A stretch of 63,006 nt of DNA, filler included, from Basidiobolus ranarum (taxonomy: Eukaryota): NCBI GenBank assembly GCA_040143965.1. It is 39 parts of 39 records of this genome, joined end to end, with 100 filler letters (N's around TTAATTAATTAA, not from the genome) between each part and the next. Parts side by side here need not be neighbours in the genome. Positions count along the whole stretch, not along the records: positions 8,127 to 9,650 come from JASJQH010011804.1; 38 more parts are not named here. One strand, written 5' to 3'. Position 1 is the first letter of the stretch; every line of letters starts with the position of its first letter. Of this stretch, positions 6,503 through 62,596 are shown piece by piece. The position numbers and the translations under genes are program-made. The notes beneath the pieces are model-generated. The model was given only the letters and a program-made list of their open reading frames with translations. It did no database searches and was not told the origin of the DNA.

Positions 6503-7420
6503 AGCAATTTTTGGATGTGTTCCAACCATTGTATACATTAAACTACCCACTATAGATTTATAAGGAAACTCATGGCTTGGACTTGAGTCATTTTGAGCCA
6601 AATCAGATAAAATTTTGATTAATTGACATTAGGATACATTGGTATTACTACAGGCTTGTTATTCTCCAAGGTGAAGTTTTTTAGAATATTGAGGATGTAT
6701 CTATACTGATTCAGCAAGAATTTCTGATTGGGTTTATCTCTCTTGATTTTGATTCCAAGAAAATAACTTAATTCATCCATACAAGTCATCTGAAATTGGT
6801 TTGATAAGCTGATTTTTTTATGATTAAGTGCATTTAGATCATTTGCACCTATGATCAAGTCATCCACATATAATGCCAAGATAAGGATCCCATTTCCGGT
6901 TGTTTAGATGTAAATACCTCAATCTGATGTGTGTTTTGGAATACTAGTGATTCCAAATAGGTATCCATGTTGTTGTACCATGCCCTGGGTGCTTGCTTGA
7001 ACCCATATAGCAATCTTTGCCATTCAAAGACAATATTAGGGTGTTTGGGTCAACCAATCCATCTGGTTGCTCCATATAGATCTCTTCTAGATTTCCATTC
7101 AGAAAGGCTGTTGTTACATCATTTGATGTAAATCAAGGTTGTGGATGGCTGAGAGTATCCAGGATTGATCTAATGGAGCTAAACTTAGCTACTATAACAA
7201 AAGTTGCATTATAATCAACTTGTGGTCTCTGGGAATAAGCTTTTGCAACTAATCTTGCTCTGTACCTTTCCATGATTCCTTCAGCTTAGTTTTTGAGTTT
7301 GTAGATCAATTTGCAACCTATTGGCTTTCTCCCTGATGGTGGAGGACTTAAAGCCCACTTTTTCTTGTCCTGAAGTGAAGAAAACTCTTCAGATATTGCT
7401 TTTTTGCAGAATTTTGATTC
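6503..7420 (-). mobile_element. Ty1/Copia reverse transcriptase fragment, degenerate
   Basis: ARLVAK, TAFLNG, YGFKQAPRAWY, LALYVDDLII, LSYFLGIKI. Confidence 0.92.
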
Positions 7421-7599
7421 TGGAAATTCCAGAGCTTGATCCAGAGTCTGTGGCTTGTCACAGAATGCTGCATAAGCATATACATCATCATTGGAAGTGT
7501 TCCACCAGTTACCTGGCTTATTGCTCCTTCTGGATGATCATCTGGGTCCTGATTCATTTGCTGATGTAATTGAGATGAGAAATTTGCTTTTTCATCAAA

Positions 7600-8026
7600 A
7601 GACTTGTTCCATCAGACCAGGTCAGATTGTGCTGCTCAATCCAGCCTGCTAGTACACCATCTGGCGCGATCTGTCAATTACCATGGCTGGGTCCTATAAC
7701 ACTTGATCGGACACTATAAGGAACAATATGGCACTATCCCACCACAATCAGACACGATGATTTTTTTGGAGATATCGTGCCAGCCTGTACCAAGTTACCC
7801 GATTTAGTATTGCCGAATTATGATTTTGGGTAACTGACAAAGTAAATTCATCCCCTAGTTTGTTACTTACAAATTACTGAATGTGTAACAATAAACAATT
7901 TATATTGTAAGTTATCCAATCAAATGTATAACCAAGACATTCACATGTTTTTAGGCCAATCATTTGTCCCTCACTAACACAGTATCCTGATTTTCAATTG
8001 GGCACAACAGCTTCTGCATTACAAAA
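7600..8026. mobile_element. End of a DNA element with AGACTTGTTCC terminus, related to the 182-bp MITE
   Basis: Highly similar to 54539-54945; same terminal motif as the MITE at 37796. Confidence 0.65.
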
Positions 8027-8486
8027 NNNNNNNNNNNNNNNNNNNNNNNNNNNNNNNNNNNNNNNNNNNNTTAATTAATTAANNNNNNNNNNNNNNNNNN
8101 NNNNNNNNNNNNNNNNNNNNNNNNNNTGACAAAACTATAAATGTCAACTTTCTACTCAATAAATCAATAAGTGAAAACCACCAATTCCTCTAATTCTCCA
8201 AACCACTTCCAACAGGCTCCCAAATACTTTAACATTATTCCAGGTTTTTTTCCCATTGTCCATTTGGTTTGTACTGAATATCTTCCTTTCTGCTTACCAC
8301 CTTTACCCCTTAACACTGTATTTACATCCTCTGAACTTGACTACATTGGTCATCCAGTTGAGTATGGATATGATCCAGTATTGTCACAATATCTTAAAAG
8401 ATTAATGTCTTGATTGTCACTTTGTTTAGATTAGTATATAAACTAAATAAAGTCCACACCACCTGGTGCTTTTCATCCCCCTAACC

Positions 8487-8865
8487 CTAAGCAGTGTATG
8501 CGCGTGCTACACAAACGTTTGTCATGACAGCGTCTGTTCTTGAATTGACTAAATGAATAGCTTTTCTGAGCACTTTTGAGAATGTAACTTCAAGCTCAGT
8601 TGGTGTGCCATAAAGCACACCACTCTGAGCAGCTTTTGTAATAGATTCTGTGATATGTGGGTGCGCATGTCCACATTTCAATGGACCATAAGCGGCTAAA
8701 TAAACGATATATTGATTATGGCCCTCGTCCCAAAAATAAGCACCCTTAGCTGTTTTCGTATAGATGGGATATTCAAGATTTACTGCTTTCTAGGATCTAG
8801 AAGGGCTATTGGCGCCCCCTACAACATGCTTCTTGATATAGACTAGCTGAACGTGTAGATAACAT
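8487..8865 (-). pseudogene. hemL: Glutamate-1-semialdehyde aminotransferase (Bacillales GsaB/HemL-like), 5' fragment
   Basis: MLSTRSASLYQEA/(frameshift)HVVGGANSPSRS*KAV...[58 protein letters not shown]...[19 protein letters not shown]; frameshift, internal TAG, short deletion and truncation. Confidence 0.88.
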
Positions 8866-9336
8866 TTTTTAAGGTTTTTTCTTAACGACTCGCTCAACTT
8901 TATAGTTTGACCCATTACTTCCTGGAATCTTTATATCAAGTTGCTGTAGCGTAACAATTTGCCCCGGAATTACTGGAGCAGTCGTTTATCCTGGGGCTGG
9001 TTTTGAAAGAGAGTCTTGGATTAACTGGCTTGATTACAGATCCTCTCGGTACTTGCCCTTCTTGCAATATTCCTCGAGTAGGAATATGCTCACTAATGGT
9101 AAAAGTTGCACTCAAGATGAAGAATACATTTATCACTAATTATTACTCTAATCATTATGGTATATAATGTAGCGCCATAAGAACGAGTCTTTTTATCATG
9201 CAATGCTGAGGAAGCATTAAACACGTATTTGTTGCCCATATCAAAGATAATAGCTACCGTCCTAAACGAATTGCATGATATGGAAATAGGGGATTATTTT
9301 ATCTATGAGGTAATTTACATTGGTACAGCGATGATT

Positions 9337-9396
9337 GTTTAGGAATTAGGGTTTAGGAGTTAGTTAGGGTTTAGGAATTAGGGCTTAGGAATTAGG
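9337..9396 (+). repeat. Degenerate telomere-like heptamer array (GTTTAGG/AATTAGG)
   Basis: About 9 TTAGG-core units read directly from the sequence. Confidence 0.75.
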
Positions 9397-9650
9397 AGTG
9401 CTTATGCATCCTAATATACTTGATTCCCAGAGTAGACAGAAAAGTCAGCCCGGACATCCCGATGGCGATGTAAAAGATGGTACGCAAGACATCAACATAC
9501 ACATTCATCACTGCAAGTTGTTCTCCTGCAGGTAAAGTAGCCATGAATTGGAAGTTGTTGGTCGCCTCCTTGATTGGGATATGATAGCTTAATTTTGACA
9601 GCCCATTGATTAGTTGGTTGTTGAATACTGAGCCGAAAATCGCGATTCCC
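9392..9650 (-). CDS. MFS drug:H+ antiporter (DHA2-like), 3' end, 5'-truncated by the contig edge
   Basis: Open frame GIAIFGSVFNNQL...AVMNVYVDVLRTIFYIAIGMSGLTFLSTLGIKYIRMHKHS*, resembling the last two TM segments of 14-TMS fungal transporters. Confidence 0.75.
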
Positions 9651-9750: not shown

Positions 9751-11273
9751 CATTTACATGCTCTACTATACCAACCACGCTACCACCAACCGTCAGGGCC
9801 AAGTGGTCAACCCCGGATAGCTTAGCGTACCTTACGCGCAGCTGGCGGCCTTTTCCAGTAGTGCAGTCCTGCCGGCCGGGTATTATTGATGATGCTATTA
9901 CAGATGAAAGACATTCACGCTCAATAGATGTGCTGCATTTTCGCAAAAATAGCCCCACAATACAAGTGACTAGCAGTGCAGGTACCCATACTATGTATAG
10001 CCACTTCAGGACCAGGATCTTCGGTTCTCCTGCAGGAATCGGCGGGAAATCCTTTGTGTTACGCAGTGACGTCCTCATCATGCGTGCGGCACCCAACAGG
10101 TCGACACGAACCGGCACCGCATCGGCTAACAGCTTGGGAATAAATTGTCCCTGCTCGGTAAAGGTAGGGCCAACGACAGAAACTATCTTATCAGCATTCG
10201 CGAGCACACCCCATGAAGTTGCTTTCACATCTCCCTGCACGTAGTACGACCCTTCAGACCAGCTTGTTGACGGAGAATCATTGGTTCCAATTATCCTATA
10301 CAGTTCGTACTGAGAATGCGCGCAACCCATAGCAGTGTCTGCACTGCCTGTGCTCTGTCGTATAAAACCATACAATGTGCACGAAGCTGATCTTATGACA
10401 GACCCTCTGTTAACAGAAAATGTTGCTGCGGAGAACAGCGTCTGTGTGTTATTCAGTGTATACGAGTTTAGGGTGGACCATCGAGTGTCAACATATGATC
10501 TTTCGACTCCAATTTCATCTGCAAGTCTCTGATTATCGGATGGAAGGCCTCCCAAGTACGTTTTTGACTTCCACTCTGAAGTAACCAAGAGTAAATCCGC
10601 CGTCCCGTTACCCGCAAACATCGCCATTGTGACGGCTCGAGAGGTCACCGGCTCACCGTTAGCACTCTCAGGAACAGATTTGGCTCTGAAATCTGGTGGC
10701 AAAGTAGTATAACCCTTTCTCACAGGATCCTAAAACGTCAAGTCTAGTGAAACTGGCTCCACGGTCAGAGGCCTGACAACTATTGCTCCATTAACCACTG
10801 CGCCAGTAGAAAAGCGCTTCGAAGGAAATACGACAGCCTGTTCTTGGGTACAACGTGTTATTGCATAATGTCCTAAGCTCCCCTGATCTGTAACAAAAAG
10901 GTTTCCACATTGCCCTGTCTCTTGTGGTATTATACTCTCGAGACGTAACTTCTCAGGCACCTGATGATAATTACTATCGGAAATGCTTACGCCTAATTGC
11001 TCAGCTACGGCGGATGGTGTGATAGCTCCAAGCTCCACCTTTTTTCTTTCCGTTAGCGCTGAGAATGCCGCAAAGTTGGCTGACAACTCTTGAGCTTTTG
11101 TTAAGACGCCTTTATGTGCAGTATTTTCCTGAAAGCACCTAGATAACAATATGCCATTTCCGGCTGAGACAGCCAGAAATATGGCGATGAACACTACACT
11201 TATTAACGAGGAGTAGTATATGCGATGTCGGCCACCAACACCAGCTAAGGTGTCAATTACCCCTCTGGGAACC
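9751..11273 (-). CDS. Uncharacterised membrane protein: one ~507-codon frame with a single internal TAG
   Basis: ORFs 10730-11194 and 9695-10723 share a frame (TTT TAG GAT CCT GTG), which stays open to both contig edges; hydrophobic segments near both ends. Confidence 0.6.
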
Positions 11274-14619: not shown

Positions 14620-16141
14620 TGGTTTGGAGAATTAGAGGAATTGGTGGTTTTCACTTATTGATTTATTGAGTAGAAAGTTGACATTTATAGTTTTGTCAAG
14701 ATGTAAACAAACTAACATGTAGAATATGTTGAGGAAGGTCCCAGAAACATGTGTGCAAAGCTTGGAGCTTCTAGCATAAGTTTGAAAAATCTATATATCT
14801 GAGAACTTCTAAGTAGGTAAAAATATTGTAAGTAAATTCAGATTGAGAATAATTGATAATATCTTAGTGAATTATAAGATAACTAAGTACTCAGCTATAT
14901 ATGACTATATAGGTGTTTAGGCAATGCCAATTTCAACATTGGAAGTGGTTTGAAGTATTAGAGAAATTGGTGGTTTTCACTTCTTGATTTATTGAGTAAA
15001 AAGCTGACATTTATGGTTTTGTCAAGATGTAAACAAACCAATGTGTTAGGGAAGGTCCCAGAAACATGTGTGCAAAGTTTGGAGCTTCTTTGAAAAATCT
15101 CTATATCTGAGAACTTCTAAGTAGGTGTCAATATTTCAAGTAAATTCCAATTGAGAATAATGGGTAATATTGTAGTGAATTATAAGATAACTAAATACTA
15201 AACTATATATGACTATATAGATGTCTAGGCAATGCTAATTTCAACACTCCCTCAACTAAATAGTCATATAAACTAATCCTATGGAAGGTCTAAATTTCTC
15301 AAATTTCTGTCTAGCTAATGGTTTGCTATTATATCAGCAATCATGTCCTCTGTAGAACAATAAGTTAAGTCAATAAACTTACTCTCTACAGTCTCTCTAG
15401 GGAAGTGATATCTAATATCTATATGTTTGCTTCTATTATGAAACATAGAATTTTTAGCTAATATGATACAACTTTGATTATCTTGAACTATTGTAGTTTG
15501 TGAATTTTGAGAATAACCTAATTCGGTTAAAAGTTTTGTTTGTTGAAATTAGCTTTTCCTAAGCACCTATATAGTCATTTACATCTTAGTACTTAGTTAT
15601 CTTATAATTCACTAAGATATTCACCAGTTTTCTCAATTGGAATTTACTTAGAATCTTGACATTGACTTAGATGTTCTCAGATATATAAGTTCTTCAAAGA
15701 AGCCCCAGACTTTGCACACATATTTCTGGGACCTTCCTTAACACATTAGTTTGTTTACATCTTGACAAAACCATAAATGACAACTTTCTACTCAATAAAG
15801 CAACAAGTGAAAACTGTTGAAATTAGCATTGCCTAAACACCTATATAGTCATATATAGCTTAGTACTTAGTTATCTTGTAATTCACTAAGATATGATCAA
15901 TTATTCTCAATTAGAATTTACTTACAATATTTTTACCAACTTAGAAGTTCTCAGATATATAGATTTTTCAAACTTGTGCTAGAAGCCCCAAACTTTGCAC
16001 ACATGTTCCTGAGACTTTCCTTAACATATACTACATGTTAGTTTGTTTACATCTTGACAAAACTATAAATGTCAACTTTCTACTCAATAAATCAATAAGT
16101 GAAAACCACCAATTCCTCTAATTCTCCAAACCACTTCCAAC
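14620..16141. mobile_element. Stack of four Copia LTR-B copies around an RNase H/PPT fragment
   Basis: LTRs at 14620-14938(-), 14939-15246(-), 15541-15814(+) and 15815-16141(+); on the - strand KHIDIRYHF lies within 15247-15540 and the PPT AGTTGAGGGAG abuts the LTR. Confidence 0.85.
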
Positions 16142-35671: not shown

Positions 35672-37140
35672 ATAGTTTGCCTCAAAGTTTTGGTAACACT
35701 GCCAAAAGTCAAGATACTGTGGAGATACCACAGTTATATGACCAGAATGATGTAGGTCCAAATGCAACTTTGGTCAAACCAGTAAGTCCAGACAACTTTA
35801 AGGACTTGCTGCTAGATGTTGACCTTGGTTATTCCAGTACCAATAGTAGTATATCAGAAGTTGAAGAAGAAGATGATGGTTTTGTTATGGACTCTTTGTT
35901 ATTGGCAAACATTAGTCCACTCATAACACTTGCTGTAAAGGAAGTGTCACAATTCTGATCTTGGCATGCTGATACACTACAAATAGAACTCCTCTATTAT
36001 GAGATTATGACATCATATCTGCTGTGCAATCTCTTCTTGGCAATCTTGTTTTAGTTTATCCATATTACCTTATACCAAAGTCATGTTCTTTGGAACATTC
36101 CATGAAACCTAACCACTCATGTCATCTCTCACATGGTGTATTGAAGGTCACCTGATCATCCTTACATCATCCCTCTTGGTATTGGTCCTTGTAGTCCCCA
36201 ATGCCCTGACTCTTGAACTTGCCACAGTATATTTCTTATTAAGTATATTATGTTTCACCTTGCAATATCTATATAAGCCCCATGTATTCCTTGATCAGAC
36301 CTCAGTCTGATCAATGCCAGTTATTAATAAAGATTCTTGCCAAAGTATCTTACTTGTCCAGTCTTGTCTTGTCTTGTCTTGTGATCTACACCCAAGTACT
36401 CTCCTGTCTTCTAGCCTCATGTTGTTGTTCCCAGTCCTTGTCCAGTTCCTTATTGTGACAGGAAGCAGCTTTGATTATTGAGGAGTGGAGAGTTCAATCC
36501 AATCTTAGCAACCAGGTGTTTATTGGTTTTCTTACATTATACCACAGTTGATTGGCAACTTTTGCTTGGCACAGACCTGTTACAAGTGGAAAACACATGT
36601 CAATTGTATGACTTATAGTCCTTCAGTAATTAAACTACCTTCATATCCAAATGGTTGTTTGGCTTTCACAGGTGATCTGAAAAACCTGAAGTCATGTACT
36701 GTTTATACACAATTAGCAATCACTAAATCAGGTAAATATTGTTCATATTTGGCTTATATATGTTGATTCCCCATCTTAAAGTTTCAATGAAATCACACAA
36801 ATATAGATCATTGATCCAATACCAAAGTACTCACCACAAAGCTGATGGTATTACTAATATACTTGATGGATATCACTACCAGAATCTGAAAAGTCAAGGT
36901 TTCTTTGAGAACACATATCATCATGCTTTTGCATTGGCTCTGGATGGTTTCTCACTAAACAAATATACCATTGGAAAGGCTTGCTGGCCAATAAATTTAA
37001 TCAACTTAAATCTTCCTCATTCTCAATGGTATAAGAGTCATAATATTTTGATACTATCCATCATATCTGGACCTAAATCCCCAGTACTTATAGATAGCTT
37101 CTTGGAGCCTTTGATTGCGGAATTTGAATGGTTATCTAAT
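35672..37140 (+). mobile_element. CACTA/En-Spm transposase (Transposase_21/Tnp2-like), interrupted by a solo LTR
   Basis: LALDGF...CWPINLINLNLP..WYK..NILILSIISGPKSP..IDSFLEPLIAE; upstream PNGC..F..C..C zinc motif. Confidence 0.9.
35945..36460 (+). repeat. Solo LTR family D with 5-bp target-site duplication GGAAG
   Basis: GGAAG|TGTCA...TGACA|GGAAG; the empty site GTAAAGGAAGCAGCTTTG is seen at ~51271. Confidence 0.93.
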
Positions 37141-37795
37141 TGGGATCATTTCTGCCTGATAAGTATTGGCAACATTGAGAGTTGTTTGNNNNNNNNNNNN
37201 NNNNNNNNNNNNNNNNNNNNNNNNNNNNNNNNTTAATTAATTAANNNNNNNNNNNNNNNNNNNNNNNNNNNNNNNNNNNNNNNNNNNNTATGAATACCAT
37301 GAGAGTATTCCCAAGAAACCGCCATCACACCATCAAAATCCCTGGCAGAATGCAAGCCACCAATATTGTGAAGGTTACCTGACAGTTTTGCTCTTTTGGA
37401 GGGTGGATCCAATTGGGATCAAATTAATTTTATTTTTGTTAGGGCCCACTGAAGAACTTTTGATACCCGCAGTAGAGTACATGCAAGCATCACAAATAAC
37501 AAAGTAGGCTATGTTTTCAAGGAAACTGTTGAAAGACTGGAGCATTTCTTTGGGGAAAATATGGGCTGTTTGGAGGAACTTTAGAAAAGTGGAGTTGTGA
37601 ATAGCTTTTGTGTGATAATTATTTATTGTCGAGAAATAAAGCATTTACACATTTGGGTGGAAATACAAAAAACTAACACTGGAGTTGTATTCAGAACATC
37701 TGTGGGAGTAAGATGAGCTACATTTGGGGCAATTTGGATGAGTTTGAAATTTCCAAAATGGAATTGCTAATTCTCACATTATTCACATATATATA

Positions 37796-41459: not shown

Positions 41460-42035
41460 TAGGATCTAGAATTTTGCTAACTTCATATTAAGGGTGTTTA
41501 TCAACTTGATTGCTGGGGGTAGGTCAATAGATTGGCCTTCAAAGGTGTTTCTGGCATGTGGCTTTAGGAGAGACACATGGAATACATTGTGGACTTTGAA
41601 ATGGGCTGGGAGTTCAAGGCGGAAGGCTACAGAATAGATTTGCTTAATAATCTTGAAAGGCCCTAGTCTCTTATGATCAAGCTTATCACAAGGTCTAGAG
41701 GTTTTGATATTTTTCTGGAGTAGCCAAGCATAATCTCCTGGCTTGAGATCTGGGCTTGGCTTTCTTTTCATATCAGCAAAGTTCTTGTATTGAGATTGAG
41801 CATGCTCCAACTCAGATATTAGTTGTTTATGGATATCCTTAAGGAAAGTGGCATGGTCTGAGGCAGCAGGGCAAGGTACATTGGATGGTGGGTCAATTGT
41901 GAAAAAGGATGGAATTCATAATTTGCAAAGAAAGGAGTTTGTTTTGTTGAGGTATGATAAGAGTTGCTGTAAGAAAATACAGCAAGAAGCAAGAGTTTTG
42001 TCCAATTATCCTGATTATTGTTGATAGTGCATCAC
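41460..42035 (-). mobile_element. Gypsy (chromovirus-like) integrase C-terminus
   Basis: KLDHKRLGPFKI...AFRLELP..FKVHNVFHVSLLKP (GPY/F module); EYEVSKIL chromodomain start in a shifted frame. Confidence 0.88.
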
Positions 42036-43650: not shown

Positions 43651-43965
43651 NNNNNNNNNNNNNNNNNNNNNNNNNNNNNNNNNNNNNNNNNNNNTTAATT
43701 AATTAANNNNNNNNNNNNNNNNNNNNNNNNNNNNNNNNNNNNNNNNNNNNTATTTTTGGAAGCCAATGATTTATTCTGATTACATACAATACATAAGACG
43801 GAAATAATGATATCTACAAGTGAGTTAACAAGCTTGTAACCTGCGGGTGGGAATGTCAATCAACTGATCTCCCTGATGCTTGCTCTAGTCGAACTCTTGG
43901 ATAGTTCTCCCGAGACGATCAAAACTCAAGCACCAGTCCAAACAAAGATCTCCGCATGTGTAAAT

Positions 43966-45264
43966 CTAATGCTCCTCCAATGCTCCAGGAATGTCTTTGA
44001 GGTCCACATCAATGAGGTCTTGAAGAGCTCCACCAATGATCTGGATTCCTTCTCTGAGTTGCTCCTCGCTGATCACGAGTGGTGGTGCTAAACGAATGAT
44101 ATTCTCGTGAGTAGGCTTGGCCAAGAGCCCTCTCTCCTTCAAGAGCAGACACAAGTGCCAGGCAGTCTTGGGAGCTGACTTCTCCTGATCAATCACGATG
44201 GCATTCAACAAACCGCGACCACGAACGCATGAGACAATGGGGGAGTTCAAGGCACGAAGTTCTTTACGGAAAATCTTACCAAGACGATCAGCACGCTCGA
44301 CAAGTCCTTCCTCCTTGACGACCTCCAATGCTGCCATGGCAACCGCACAACCAAGAGGGTTTCCACCATAGGTAGAACCGTGCTCCCCAGGGTTGATACA
44401 CAACATCACTTCCTTATCAGCCAACACTGCTGACACGGGGTAGACGCCACCAGAAAGCGCCTTACCGAGCAATACCATGTCTGGGCGGACGTTTTCATGA
44501 TCAATAGCAAGCATAGCACCAGTACGAGCAATACCGGTTTGGATCTCATCGGCAATGAAGAGAATGTTGTGCTTCTTGCAAAGGTCATAGCACTTACGGA
44601 GATATCCCTCATCTGGAACCATGATACCAGCTTCACCCTGGATGGGCTCGACAAGGAATGCGGCGATGTTCTCGGGTTGAGCCTCGACGGCTGCCTCCAG
44701 GTCTTCATAGTTGTTGTAGCGGATCTCACGTCCAGTCTTCTGACAGAATGGTCCGACATTAGGAAGGTATGGTCCAAAGTCGTTACGAGCATCAGGATCG
44801 GTGGACATGGAGATGATACCACAAGTACGACCGTGGAAGTTGTTGCTGCATGAGAGAACGATAGCTTGATTGGTAGGAATTCCCTTCTTCATGTATCCCC
44901 ACTTACGAGCAAGCTTGATGGCGGTCTCAACTGCTTCAGCTCCGGTGTTCATAGGGAGAACCATGTCATATCCAAAGTACTCAGTGACATACTTGGCATA
45001 TTCACCAAACACATCGTTGTAGAAGGCGCGTGAGCTGAGGCACACCTTTTGGGCTTGGTCCACCAAAGCCTTGATGATCTTAGGGTGACTGTGGCCTTGG
45101 TTGACTGCAGAGTAGGCTGAAAGGAAATCATAGTAACGCTTACCCTCGGGATCCCAAACGTACACCCCTTCAGCCTTGGAGAAGACCACGGGAAGTGGGT
45201 GATAGTTATGGGCACTGTGTTTGTGCTCAAGGTCAATAATTTGTTGGGAAGTGGAGATGGTCAT
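43966..45264 (-). CDS. CAR2: Ornithine aminotransferase (class III PLP enzyme), intronless, 432 aa
   Basis: [67 protein letters not shown]. Confidence 0.98.
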
Positions 45265-45367
45265 ANNNNNNNNNNNNNNNNNNNNNNNNNNNNNNNNNNN
45301 NNNNNNNNNTTAATTAATTAANNNNNNNNNNNNNNNNNNNNNNNNNNNNNNNNNNNNNNNNNNNNTC

Positions 45368-46600
45368 TTATCTGACAAGTTACCCAAATGCGTTGATCTC
45401 GAAATCACAAGCGGCAAATGGAACTCCGAAGAAATTAACAACATGGTTAAAATCTATACCATGCTTGGCTCTTCTGCAACCCGGAAAAGACTCTTTGGCG
45501 ATGTAAGATTAAAACTTTTCGACGGAAGTTTTGTCCATAAACTAAATTCCAAATCCGGTATCGTTGCCCTGCAAAATGGTGTCTATGATCTCCACGAAGG
45601 TATAGTTCGCGAACCTGTCCCTTCTGATTATGCCTCTATTCGAGCCCCAACCCTCCTCCTCGATCCTATCCCTCAACATAAGTTATCTAAATTAATGGGC
45701 GTCTTAGAAAAAATATTCCCCGAACCAGAACTCCTAGACTTTTTTATCATGACCTGTGCATCGTTCTTAGAAGGTTACAATTCCAACAAAATCTTTTACA
45801 TCTGGTGGGGCAAAGGTAACAACGCCAAAACTGCTATACAAACATTGGTCGCCAAAACTTTCGGTAACTATTGTGCCACTCTTCCAACTACTCTTATTAC
45901 CCGAAGCAGAGGCTCGTCTTCTAACGCAACCCCTGATATGTGTCATCTTGAAGGCAAACTTGTTATGTTCTTGCAAGAACCAAACTCCGAAGAAAAAATT
46001 AAAGGTGGTGTCGTTAAAGAACTCACCGGAAACGATAATATTTATATCAGAGAACTTTACAAACAACCTCGATCCATTAAGATCAAAGGTAAGATGATTC
46101 TCGTCTGTAATAATATCCTAGATATTCCAGACATAGATGCCGCACTTAAACGTAGAACCATTGTCATCCCTTTCTTAAGTACTTTCTTGCCCAAACGAGA
46201 ATTTGACTCTCTAGAAAACCAAAATAAAAAATATACATATTTGGTTGAACCTAATGCAGAAAAAATATTAGAAGATTCATGCGACGAATTTATGTCGTTG
46301 CTATTGCGCGAATATCCCAGATATCTTAAGTGTGGCCTTCAAGTACCTAAGATTATTTCTGATACAATAGATACATATCTTGTTGCTCACAATTATCCAG
46401 TGGTGTTTAAACGCAAATACTTCAAGATCCAACCCGGTACTAATATGGAAGTACGTGAAATTTATGGCCAGTTTAAATCTTGGTTCAAAGATGTGCATCC
46501 AAGTCATAACATTCCAACATTAGAAAAATTCGCGAACGCTCTTAACTTAGAATGGGATGGAGTACTAGAAGATATATTTGTTTCTTATGATGAAATGTAA
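45368..46600 (+). CDS. D5-like primase-helicase (SF3 helicase part), NCLDV-like, 5'-truncated
   Basis: NGVYDL (D5_N), Walker A GKGNNAKT, ATPD, Walker B FLQEP, KELTGND, motif C LVCNN, Arg finger ALKRR; frame is open to the contig edge. Confidence 0.92.
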   Translation, partial: LSDKLPKCVDLEITSGKWNSEEINNMVKIYTMLGSSATRKRLFGDVRLKLFDGSFVHKLNSKSGIVALQNGVYDLHEGIVREPVPSDYASIRAPTLLLDPIPQHKLSKLMGVLEKIFPEPELLDFFIMTCASFLEGYNSNKIFYIWWGKGNNAKTAIQTLVAKTFGNYCATLPTTLITRSRGSSSNATPDMCHLEGKLVMFLQEPNSEEKIKGGVVKELTGNDNIYIRELYKQPRSIKIKGKMILVCNNILDIPDIDAALKRRTIVIPFLSTFLPKREFDSLENQNKKYTYLVEPNAEKILEDSCDEFMSLLLREYPRYLKCGLQVPKIISDTIDTYLVAHNYPVVFKRKYFKIQPGTNMEVREIYGQFKSWFKDVHPSHNIPTLEKFANALNLEWDGVLEDIFVSYDEM

Positions 46601-47325
46601 TTTTGTTTTTTAAAATTTCTTATTCTTGTAAATATGCAAGTTGTTATTTAACTCTATACATAACCTTTTTTCTTTACCTTAACCCAATTTGGATCTTGGT
46701 TCGAAACTTTTCTCCTCTAGAAACTTTTTTTTCTAAATTTATATTTTTGCGAACCAGATTAAAACTTTGTTGATTATATCTTTCTAGTTTAAACTTTCAC
46801 ATCTGGAACTAATTTCTTTTTAAAAACCCAAACTCTTGTTGTTTCGAAAACTTTTTTAATATCTTACGAAATTATTTTTNNNNNNNNNNNNNNNNNNNNN
46901 NNNNNNNNNNNNNNNNNNNNNNNTTAATTAATTAANNNNNNNNNNNNNNNNNNNNNNNNNNNNNNNNNNNNNNNNNNNNTATCTTTATCTTTATACACCT
47001 AACTATTTCATATATCACATATAAGTTAGTTAACATTACTTAGTCAAATATCACTTAGCTGAAAATCGGAACATATATTATATATATATGAGAATAATGT
47101 GGGAATTAGCAATTTCATATTGGAAATTTCAAACTTGTCCAAATTGCCCCAAAGATAGCTCATTTTACTCCCACAGATGTTATAAACACAACCCCAGTGT
47201 TAGTTTTGTGTATTTCCACCAAGAAGTATATATGCTTTATTTCTGGACCATAAACAATTATCTCACAAAGCTATTCACAACTCCACTTTTCTAATGTTCT
47301 TGCAAACAGCCCATATTTTCCCAAT

Positions 47326-56658: not shown

Positions 56659-56907
56659 TTCAATAGTATGCACGTGGTTTGACTTCTTAGCAAGAACATA
56701 GATGGTGTTCTTGACAGTGTCGGTTGGGACAATGGAGCTATTGTCAGCTTCAGTGTAGGAAGTCTCAAATTTACCATCAAGAAGAACCTGGCAAGTGAGT
56801 TCGACAACATCGTGCCAGTCCTGAGTGTGACGAATAACCTTAGTGACGCGGACTTTGGTCTTGCCATAGGCTTGTTTCTTCAAATAGGCGTCAGAGTTGT
56901 TGGACAT
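56659..56907 (-). CDS. Urate oxidase (uricase), copy 1, 5' part
   Basis: YGKTKVRVTKV, SYTEADNSSIVPTDTVKNT. Confidence 0.95.
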
Positions 56908-57456
56908 AGTTTGATGTTGCAGCTAATAGAAGCTGATGAAATCCACAGGTGAATAGCAACTTTTTATACCGAAATACAATGAAACAGTTCGTTACACTAG
57001 ATCTTACGAATATTAAGTGATCTGATTTGCAACCATGGTCAAGGAGCCTCGGCCTTGATATGAACCAAGTGTAACTGGCATTTGAGAATGAATTCTCAGC
57101 AAAAAAACTATTGATTAGATTGAATGATAGATCGCAATACTAACCTGGTTAGGCCGGTCGTGGGTTTATTATTCAAGTAACATTATACTACAAATATACA
57201 AGATTTTATTGAATGTGGTAGCCACAGATGATTACAAATGCTCTCTATAAATCACCGTTTAAAGCGCTCCAAAGGTAGGACTAGCACCGGTGTCAAAAGA
57301 CGCCTCAAATAGGGCCACATTTCAGAAGAATTCTCATCGTAAAATTTGTTTGATTTGTCCAAGGTAGCACGGATCTGAACTTCGAAAATATATAAAGCCT
57401 TCAATATATGAAGCAGTGAAGTACAACTACCAGCTTGCTCAGATATCTAACAAATA

Positions 57457-58170
57457 ATGTCTTCGTCTATCGAAATAAAACGCCAGGCCTACGGTAAAGC
57501 TAAGGTCAGAGTCACTAAAGCTATCCGTCATACCGCCGAGTGGAATGACATTGTTGAACTTACCTGCCAAGTTCTCCTTGAGGGTGACTTTGAGACGGCT
57601 TACACCAAGGCTGACAACAGCATGGTAGTCCCAACTGACACAGTTAGAAACACTTGTTATATCATTGCCAAGAAATCCGACCATGTTCAAACCATTGAGC
57701 GTTACGGTTACGAACTTGGCAAACATTTCGTTGACAGATACCCTCATGTCACCCACGCCAATGTCCACATTGTTCAATCCCGTTGGGCAAGAATCAACGT
57801 CAATGGTGAGCCTCACCCTCACTCCTTCTATCGCGATGGATCCGAAACCAGACAAACCTGGTTGACTGTCACTGCCAACAATGTCAGTATTAAATCGGGT
57901 TTGGAAGGCCTGCTTGTGTTGAAGACTACTGGTTCATCCTTTACCAACTTCCATCTCTGTGAGAACACCACCCTTCAAGATGCTGATGATCGCATATTCT
58001 CTACCACTGTCAAGGCTCACTACAACATCAACACTTCCACTGGAGTTGAAAACATTCCGTTCGATCGTATCTTTGATGGAGTTCGCAAGACCACCTTGGA
58101 TGTATTTGCTCACGATGACTCTGCCTCAGTCCAAGCCACCATGTACCGTATGGCTGAGTTGATCTTGAAG
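57457..58170 (+). CDS. Urate oxidase (uricase), copy 2, 3'-truncated
   Basis: YGKAKVRV, VVPTDTVRNT, HPHSF, VLKTTGSSF, DRIFST, SASVQATMY. Confidence 0.97.
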
Positions 58171-59782: not shown

Positions 59783-61880
59783 NNNNNNNNNNNNNNNNNN
59801 NNNNNNNNNNNNNNNNNNNNNNNNNNTTAATTAATTAANNNNNNNNNNNNNNNNNNNNNNNNNNNNNNNNNNNNNNNNNNNNAATAAATAAACCTATTGT
59901 AAGCATTATATATTTAGCATAAAGTCAAGTAGATATAGTCAAGTTCCCTAGTGAGCTAGACATAAGAGTATTCCAAATAGGATAGGGTTATGGTGCATAG
60001 TTCTTCTAAGCCAGAGTAAGATAGTTTGGGAGGCTGGGGATATGAGGGATGCAATCCCCCATATAAAGAAAAAATAGGGGGTCTCAGTGATATAATCCCC
60101 AAATGCTTATGATTGGATGCCTTATGTAAAGATTCCACCCCACCCAAGTCAGAAGTCTCAACTGTGGTGATTTTAACCTAGGGGTAAATATTTTACATAG
60201 AAATTAGCTTGACTTTGACTATATATATCAAGTTTCTTAACCACAACATATTCATGAGGCTCAAATGAATGACTGCATATCAATTGTAGTTTTCCCTTGT
60301 AGTCAAGCAGCCTTATATGTCATGATCTGCTATGGACCAAACCAAAGTGTCAATACAGAAGACTCTTTTCAATGATAGCTTCAACATTATATATTGGCTT
60401 ACATGCTTGTTTAAATTCAGTGGAGATTTGTCAAGATCAAAAGGTTTACTTCCGGCAGGTCTTTGGGTGAATATGTAAAACAAGTCAACAACTTAGTCCC
60501 ATAAAAGGAAGCTTTTACCTTACATCTTATTATTTTGGTCTTCTCCAGTTCAGAATTCAAGCTAATTGAGCTTTTGTTTCTTACAAAACTATCAAAGTTT
60601 ATGTCCTAAAAATTTGGTTGACAAGTAACTTCTATGAGCTAATCAACAGAGAAATACAGCATCCCAGGAAACATATTAATGTCATTTTTGAGTTAGAGCT
60701 TTGCTTGAAATCTGTATATTTAGATACATATCACAAAGACAATAATTACAAATTAACATCATATATGATAACAAACATCTATTATCAAACTTATTTCCAT
60801 ATATATCATTTCCTGGATAAATCTGACTTGTTAGTACAAATTATGGGTGAAGAAACACTTACTTCTATTCCAGATCATGGTACCAATTTAGTCAGATTGT
60901 GTATGGTGGCTCAAGTCACACAAATACAAAGACATTAATTAAAACATTTGATCATTACATCAAGCATCAATTCACTATTTGTACTGCAAACAAAAAGACT
61001 GGTGCCAAGTCATAATGTGGAGTTGCTCAAGATTTTCCTTGTTTAGGTTTAGTAGGCAAGGTGATGGCATTTCTGGTTGGAAAAGTAAGAGTGCTCATAA
61101 TTATTGCTACTAAGAAGCTTTATATATACTTGAGGCTAATCATTTGATTGCATAATTGTTTTTTAAAGTAGCTGATTTCTCCTATATTCAGTGTTGAATA
61201 TGATAAATATAACATCTCTTTCAACTATGTCATTATGAGTCTTCTTCACAAATTGTAACATGTATCTGTTTAAATTAGCATTGCCTAAACACCTATATAG
61301 TCATATATAGCTTAGTACTTAGTTATCTTGTAATTCACTAAGATATTATCAATTATTCTCAATCAGAATTTACTTAGAATATTTTTACCAACTTNNNNNN
61401 NNNNNNNNNNNNNNNNNNNNNNNNNNNNNNNNNNNNNNTTAATTAATTAANNNNNNNNNNNNNNNNNNNNNNNNNNNNNNNNNNNNNNNNNNNNCAATGG
61501 TGGGCTTTGATGGAGATATTGACACAAACTTGTGTTGGGTATGAGCTAAACCTTGGGTATGAAGAACTCTATAAAAATATTCAGGAGAATATATCAAAGT
61601 GACTAAGGATTTTGAAGGTGACAAATTAGCATTCAACTGGTAATTGTGTAAAATTTGAGATATGTTTTTTGCACATGTGTTGATCCATAGTTCTCTGAGA
61701 TTTTAGCCAATCATTTGCAACTATTTTGTGAGATCTTGAAATTTACTCCTGAAACTGAAAAAATTGATTAAAATCAAATCTAACTTGATGATTTTATGAT
61801 GGTAAGTAAATGGTCAATCCCAAATGGATTAAAATTGTAATGGTTTTCCTGCAATAACAATCCTCAAATTTCTGTTAGGG

Positions 61881-62596
61881 ATTCATATTGAATTTTCCAC
61901 TATATAGCTGAGTAAGTATTATTGGAATGTTGTTGAATAGCAAGTGCATAATGCCTAATAAGAAGCTCTGTCTCCAGCTGATCTCCTTTAGCAATATAAT
62001 CTTAGGCCTATGGCTAATACCAAGTTTGATGTTAGACTGACTATTTGGTGAATTGATATCAGTGCTTGTATAGAAATCTGACTGAGCTCTTGATGGTAAA
62101 ATAATGAAGTTTAGTGTTGTTGTTGAATAGTAGTAATGCGTATGTCTGTTAGAGTATACTCCATTGATTTGACAAAATCTACAGCAAGATAGTGCATTGT
62201 GCCTGCAAAAACCTCCAACTTTACTGATGGTAGGAGTGTCACTGATACATACAATGATATTAGCTTTAATAAAATATTTACCCATCTGAACCCCATTAGA
62301 TAACATTTCAAAATCTGCAATCAAAGGCTCCAAGTAGCTATCTATAAGCACTGGTGATTTAGATCCAGATATGATAAAATATTGTGACTCTTATATCATT
62401 CAGAAGGAGGTAGATCTAAGTTGATTAAAATTATTGGTCAGCAAGCCTCTCCAACAGTATATTTGCTTAGTTAGAAACCATCCAAAGCCAATGCAAATGC
62501 ATGATTATATGTGTTCTCAAAGAATCCTTGTCTTTTCAGGTTCTGGTAGTGATATCCATCTACCATAATGGCAAAACCATCAGCTCTATGGTGAGT
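61881..62596 (-). mobile_element. CACTA transposase fragment
   Basis: FALALDGF, IDSYLEPL, DTP.ISK.GGFCRHN. Confidence 0.88.

Follow-up and report, generated by a model that had tools for sequence, protein, structure and literature searches.

According to the survey of Tabima et al. 2020 (PMC7466969), 2-5% of the gene models of Basidiobolus are candidates for transfer from bacteria, with the Firmicutes ranking second or third among the donors (112, 68 and 35 models in three genomes) and with the presence of a fungal gene on the same scaffold used as a criterion. The locus described here is a relic that belongs to this already known class of bacterial transfers in Basidiobolus, and it has in common with the candidates of that survey the host genus, a donor phylum that ranks in the first three and linkage to a fungal gene on one scaffold. 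Whereas those candidates, as the survey describes them, are intact gene models with a host-like GC content (mean 0.49), the sequence analyzed here is an unannotated dead fragment with a GC content of 0.415. The supplements of PMC11291939 contain no aminomutase or PF00202 entry, although Tables S4 and S5 of PMC7466969 might list one, and our search found no relevant literature linking Basidiobolus with glutamate-1-semialdehyde.

The closest described protein is GsaB of Bacilli (NF009055 or PRK12389; a solved structure is PDB 3l44), which the fragment resembles in its best-scoring family, its best-matching structure and the position of its start codon. Unlike the GsaB proteins of Bacilli, the fragment covers only 31% of the protein length, scores 150.9 bits against the family cut-off of 637, contains a stop codon, a frameshift and an 18-base deletion, and is changed in 19 of 70 invariant columns.

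Two further bodies of work are relevant to the borders of the fragment. Transforming DNA is reported to gain host telomeres in Acanthamoeba, Histoplasma, Fusarium and Paramecium (PMC11995660); the repeats are added there without any special junction motif, and the authors propose telomere addition as a natural route of gene transfer. The locus studied here would resemble these cases in that ends of foreign DNA receive host telomere repeats, but the cases described in that report are laboratory episomes with long telomeres, whereas here we are dealing with a natural, decayed chromosomal locus that carries 13 bases of repeat on one side and a degenerate array on the other. In the bdelloid rotifer Adineta vaga, foreign genes are reported to be enriched in subtelomeres, and one hotspot contains interstitial telomeric repeats (PMC8494291). 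The co-occurrence of foreign genes, transposons and telomere repeats is common to the rotifer and the present locus; however, the rotifer is an animal in which the association is described at chromosome scale, whereas here it is base-exact at the edge of one fragment. For the combination of interstitial telomeric repeats with horizontal transfer of bacterial origin, the only literature that we found is karyotype work on Cryptococcus/Kwoniella. The base-exact telomere repeat at the broken end of the gsaB fragment is a new feature.

The window, that is, the whole stretch of DNA that was analyzed (63,006 bases, of which 59,662 are real, non-linker bases), is made up of 39 separate contigs, which are arranged by falling length (from 1526 down to 1512 bases) and joined by 38 linkers, each composed of 44 N, TTAATTAATTAA and another 44 N. 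The adjacency of pieces in the window carries no meaning, and physical linkage to the gsaB fragment extends only over positions 8127-9650, which form one contig of 1524 bases with the following features:

8127..8213, plus strand: final 87 bases of a Copia-type long terminal repeat (LTR), which is ~320 bases long in full
8214..8477: stretch of 264 bases that separates the LTR from the telomere repeat, with no family match above threshold
8478..8490, minus strand: exact copy of TTAGGGTTAGGGG (two telomere units and one further G), on the sense strand of gsaB
8493..8865, minus strand: gsaB pseudogene fragment, 373 bases, codons 1 to ~135
8866..9336: spacer of 471 bases that separates the start codon of gsaB from the telomere-like array
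9337..9397, plus strand: degenerate telomere-like array, 61 bases, unit GTTTAGGAATTAGG, 4 copies
9392..9650, minus strand: 3' end of an MFS transporter gene, the last 85 codons and the stop codon

The minus-strand frame at 8915-8490, with one TAG read as X, produced a Pfam match to Aminotran_3 (E-value 1.7e-07). Comparison with the NCBIfam collection identified the fragment as a member of the GsaB-type glutamate-1-semialdehyde 2,1-aminomutases (NF009055, E-value 4.1e-44), with an alignment that spans model positions 14-133 of 431. This is the top-scoring NCBIfam family for the fragment, with 150.9 bits versus 102.4 for hemL (TIGR00713) and 98.6 for NF000818. The score is far below the curated cut-off of NF009055, so that the fragment does not qualify as a whole protein of this family, because just one third of the protein is present; the top homologue (P0003) clears the same cut-off with 848 bits. 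The best PDB match is 3l44 (E-value 4e-40), compared with an E-value of only 2.8e-13 for Arabidopsis GSA1 (5hdm). When six full-length GsaB sequences were used as queries against the window, residues 3-134 were found at 8882-8490, and no trace of residues 135-430 was detected anywhere in the window. The fragment is truncated at 8493, which corresponds approximately to residue 135 of ~430. The missing C-terminal two thirds of GsaB presumably include the PLP-binding lysine.

The reading frame that starts from the ATG at 8865, ahead of the frameshift, encodes MLSTRSASLYQEA, which aligns from residue 1 with the N-termini of the homologues (e.g., MKQTRSEALYEEA), with the start codon in the same position; its median score against these N-termini was reached by none of 1000 shuffled peptides. 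The frameshift, a deletion at ~8826-8829, separates the first 13 codons from the remainder of the gene. Further downstream, a TAG stop codon at 8790-8792 occupies a column in which the homologues carry Tyr or Phe, and an in-frame deletion of 18 bases relative to the homologues is located at ~8553-8561. Hence there is no intact open reading frame extending into the C-terminal two thirds of the protein, the frame being disrupted by the stop, the frameshift and the truncation. The original prediction, made from the sequence alone, had described a translation that follows the N-terminus of GsaB from Bacillales and is interrupted by a frameshift, a stop and a deletion, in a decayed gene whose ATG lies in an A-rich context without a Shine-Dalgarno sequence. 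The family and structure matches bear out the assignment, all three lesions were located, and the 24 bases upstream of the ATG are indeed A-rich and lack GGAGG; with the truncation and the changed invariant columns added, the decay is more extensive than these three lesions. A look-alike of the 5' end of gsaB at 8874-8894, 44 bases upstream, was considered as a second in-frame copy and rejected as not significant, being equalled by 332 of 2000 DNA shuffles and by 214 of 1000 peptide shuffles.

Apart from the individual lesions, the remaining sequence is heavily decayed. Among the 70 family-invariant columns, 51 are kept and 19 are changed, compared with 0-2 changed columns when each of the 35 homologues is set against the other 34; these homologues were taken from the best matches, so that some of the 19 changes could reflect a donor lineage missing from the sample. 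Among the changes are two substitutions in NSGTEA (Gly to Arg and Glu to Asp) and the absence of the GGG that follows KAV. In the phylogenetic tree, the terminal branch of the fragment is 0.45 compared with a median of 0.04, that is, 11 times the length typical of its relatives. The third-position GC content is 0.31, as compared with 0.51-0.55 in the host coding sequences of the window. Two thirds of the gene are lost and the rest is heavily degraded, and we infer that the fragment is currently non-functional. Fungi make 5-aminolevulinate with ALA synthase, and accordingly, a lone aminomutase would be useless to such an organism, so that decay is to be expected.

The search for relatives placed the origin of the fragment in bacteria. 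A total of 3215 longer proteins match the fragment at E-values up to 0.001; the best 120 of these are 56-65% identical to it, and every named protein among these 120 comes from Bacilli (Paenibacillus, Fictibacillus, Bacillus, Metabacillus and others), with the identity to the top matches being 60-65% over residues 1 to ~135. When one genome per prokaryote species was scanned with an alignment, 579 of the 592 candidate stretches were confirmed, the best 80 of which all belong to Bacilli or to Bacillota genome bins (52-64% identity); at the nucleotide level, the fragment is 66-76% identical to these 80 Bacilli gsaB loci. A scan of genome contigs in which the single fragment served as the query yielded no confirmed relative. 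A FastTree phylogeny (54 sequences, 120 columns) places the fragment among 35 NF009055-type proteins, within a clade of 44 supported at 1.0. When 18 full-length representatives were scored, the HemL type was the best match for 17 and NF009055 for the remaining one. These observations demonstrate the bacterial ancestry of the fragment, with a donor within the Bacilli (order Caryophanales, the former Bacillales). Because the support of the nodes inside the Bacilli clade is weak (0 to 0.81), no donor genus can be named.

The contig that carries this fragment is of fungal origin at both ends, so that the fragment is linked to a host gene and to a host repeat. At one end, 85 codons (9649-9395, minus strand) have five protein matches, all from Basidiobolus. 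The encoded C-terminus is identical in 67 of 84 residues (80%) to an MFS transporter of B. meristosporus, through the C-terminus of the latter, and in 37 of 37 residues to the terminus of a partial B. ranarum protein. The gene is of the DHA2/TRI12 type and has a C-terminal length that is normal for this family, with the contig beginning within the gene; Pfam gave no match on these 85 residues. At the other end, the contig breaks off inside the LTR repeat: positions 8127-8213 are 100% identical to 16055-16141 and, in reverse orientation, to 14620-14698, both in another piece of the window. The LTR unit of ~320 bases runs from TGTTGAAAT to CTTCCAACA and, in that other piece, comes after a purine tract and what appears, from its motif, to be the C-terminus of a Copia-like pol protein. 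The LTR call is based on structure and on the pol motif, and Pfam found no match in the pol C-terminus near the LTR. Taken together, the MFS gene end and the LTR end, both of host origin, indicate that the host is a Basidiobolus.

The piece that contains the additional LTR copies (14620-16141) is itself nearly palindromic, with 319-base arms that are 95% complementary. It contains LTR copies of ~300 bases, some in one orientation and some in the other, that surround a Copia-like pol C-terminus with a frameshift; such an arrangement reflects LTRs that are nested or in tandem, or else a contig folded back on itself during assembly. A Copia coding piece at 6503-8026 is a different contig from the one with the gsaB fragment.

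The most informative part of the locus is the 3' border of the fragment. On the sense strand, the gene reads ...GCA TAC ACT GC and then TTAGGGTTAGGGG (8490-8478). The alignment with GsaB extends as far as the Thr of ARAYT, and the similarity stops 1-2 bases short of TTAGGGTTAGGGG, which also provides the stop codon that closes the gsaB frame. Exact telomere units therefore begin at the breakpoint itself, with the G-strand continuing the 3' end of the gene. Mucor and Rhizophagus have TTAGGG as their telomere unit, according to the sources that we found for these fungi; for Basidiobolus, we found no statement on the telomere unit in the literature, and TTAGGG is assumed from these two genera. 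When metagenome contigs were scanned for the exact pattern of the junction, no further copy of it turned up.

A second telomere-like region is located on the other side of the fragment, at 9337-9397, where TRF identified an array of four copies of the 14-base unit GTTTAGGAATTAGG with 82% matches. The array contains three exact TTAGGG units on the plus strand, in the orientation opposite to that of the repeat at 8478-8490. The TAA stop codon of the MFS gene (9392-9397) is inside the array (CAC TCC TAA TTC CTA AGC CCT AA), which leaves no ordinary 3' flank between the gene and the repeat.

We consider it reasonably probable, with moderate confidence, that the locus is an integrated relic of a Bacilli gsaB gene in the nuclear DNA of Basidiobolus that bears a telomerase footprint at its 3' break. 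Under this scenario, the relic, located downstream of the MFS transporter gene and 277 bases from the Copia-type LTR, would have had a free DNA end at the gsaB 3' break, and this end would have been extended by telomerase, given that the sense strand runs directly into TTAGGGTTAGGGG; the extended end would subsequently have become internal. The case for such a footprint comes from a single 1524-base contig and a match of 13 bases.

The competing explanation that survives best accepts the integrated bacterial relic and treats the telomere-like motifs as coincidental: the gene would have been cut by plain deletion or end-joining, the 13-mer would be due to chance, and the 61-base array would be an ordinary microsatellite in the 3' region of the MFS gene. 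The shortness of the exact repeat, an array built of a 14-base unit rather than of perfect hexamers, and a host telomere unit that is assumed from other fungi all speak in favor of this possibility. So do loose matches: sequences with two mismatches or fewer occur at several other sites of the window, and when one mismatch is allowed, at least one telomere match appears somewhere in 21 of 100 shuffles of the whole window. However, TTAGGGTTAGGGG holds the sole exact (TTAGGG)n 12-mer, in any rotation and on either strand, in all the real bases of the window. By exact calculation under a first-order model, chance would produce 0.027 such 12-mers per window, 6.8e-4 per piece, and 1.6e-6 within 3 bases of the breakpoint on the correct strand. 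Moreover, 5 of the 23 TTAGGG/CCCTAA hexamers of the window are found in this 1.5 kb piece, where ~0.6 are expected, and they are ordered, C-type hexamers lying to the left and G-type hexamers to the right. We accordingly regard coincidence as rather unlikely.

The polarity of the repeats suggests an extension of the telomerase footprint that we put forward only tentatively and consider doubtful on present evidence. The 920 bases at 8478-9397, read on either strand, start with CCCTAA-type repeats and end with TTAGGG-type repeats, a polarity that fits a free linear molecule with two telomeres and is the opposite of that of healed flanking host ends. This segment might therefore be the footprint of a small linear piece of bacterial DNA that was capped by telomerase at both ends and joined at the MFS stop codon; such a molecule would have entered a chromosome break right at this codon. 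If this is the case, the locus would provide natural evidence for a route of gene transfer that involves a telomere-capped episome followed by integration, which so far is known from transformation experiments only.

A different concern is that a chimeric read or an assembly error could have fused fungal DNA with that of contaminating or gut-derived Bacilli. Such an artefact is conceivable, given the very small size of the contig, its place in the tail of an assembly and the life of Basidiobolus among gut bacteria. However, the gsaB gene of a living bacterium would be intact, whereas the fragment carries the stop, the frameshift, the deletion and the 19 broken invariant columns described above. 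The degree of divergence also argues against a contaminant. The best match among 1.84 billion cluster representatives is 63-65% identical (among the best 150 of 3434 matches), the best of 84 near-length, short proteins in the word-indexed collection is 67% identical, and nothing closer than 67% was found in these two protein collections among the matches listed. Furthermore, the flanks show no bacterial neighbor genes of the kind found next to gsaB in Bacilli. In a tblastx comparison with the 80 Bacilli loci, 528 of 530 segments lie inside the gene, and the two outside (E-values of 0.16 and 0.22) are noise; the region 8214-8477 has no similarity to GsaB or to any of these loci. Neither 8214-8477 nor 8866-9336 contains a Pfam, NCBIfam or Rfam family above threshold, with the 17 open reading frames of the flanks giving just two sub-threshold family matches (pucE, E-value 0.023, and TLC, E-value 0.014) and Rfam giving a single sub-threshold match on the 1524-base piece, at 8214-8477. 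Finally, a telomere repeat of 13 bases is too short to mislead an assembler and is not made by a library chimera. An artefactual junction is, in our judgment, improbable.

It appears highly implausible that the sequence is part of a fungal class III aminotransferase gene that still works or was inherited vertically, with the lesions lying in introns: Pfam, it is true, identifies it just as Aminotran_3, and Basidiobolus transfer candidates are reported to be able to gain introns (PMC7466969), but the stop stands in place of a residue that the alignment covers, and both the frameshift and the 18-base gap reflect bases missing in comparison with the homologues, so that these lesions cannot be introns, the residues from ~135 onward are absent from the window, and the only other class III aminotransferase in the window, an ornithine aminotransferase of the fungal type (44182-45192), is just 29-33% identical to the fragment.

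The integrated relic with a telomerase footprint at its 3' break thus remains the reading that we prefer, and it agrees with most of what the original prediction had proposed about the setting of the fragment. The postulated bacterial origin is supported by the exclusive presence of Bacilli among the best 80 loci and among the named proteins of the best 120 of 3215, and the proposed phylogenetic test placed the fragment with the NF009055-type proteins in the fully supported clade. The fungal setting was correctly recognized, as one end of the contig lies in a Basidiobolus MFS gene and the other in a repeat that recurs in this assembly, and so was the order LTR, hemL, MFS on the 1524-base contig (8127-8213 for the LTR and 9392-9650 for the MFS gene). 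The suggestion that an intact paralogue may exist found no support: there is none in the window, and no protein more than 67% identical appears among the matches listed in the two collections. No relative named as Basidiobolus was present among the matches listed (the best 120 of 3215, the 84 near-length proteins and the best 150 of 3434), although any fungal relative that is not more similar to the fragment than the bacterial ones could rank below the best 120 or 150.

Other pieces of the window contain several sequences of note. At 45366-46879, a 410-residue frame, open from the very beginning of the contig, specifies the C-terminal portion of a phage or plasmid P4-type primase-helicase (TIGR01613, E-value 1e-27; DUF5906; phrog_1156, E-value 1.5e-38; GC content 0.355), and this may be a second foreign-looking sequence, of viral or bacterial type, in the same assembly. 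The piece at 9751-11273 has an unusually high GC content (0.48) and two long minus-strand frames of 326 and 180 residues, for which no Pfam, NCBIfam, PHROG or PDB match was detected. The ornithine aminotransferase gene, in the piece at 43751-45265, is intronless and apparently intact (TIGR01885, 711.8 bits; GC content 0.49). Ordinary host and transposon content is represented by a part of a uricase gene (TIGR03383, 264 bits) at 56659-58170, two fragments of tnp2/CACTA-type transposases at 36736-37188 and 61878-62390, and a Tf2-type integrase SH3 fragment at 41469-41915.

Dead transfers such as this one are of interest as an unselected record of the DNA that enters a genome, a record that surveys of gene models overlook. 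A heme-pathway gene that is useless to the fungus fits random uptake followed by decay. The telomere repeat at the broken end is the more useful part of the finding, in that it hints at how foreign DNA enters. If the borders of other bacterial segments in Basidiobolus carry the same mark, the long-standing question of how DNA from bacteria comes to reside in eukaryotic chromosomes would become testable by a simple genome-wide count.
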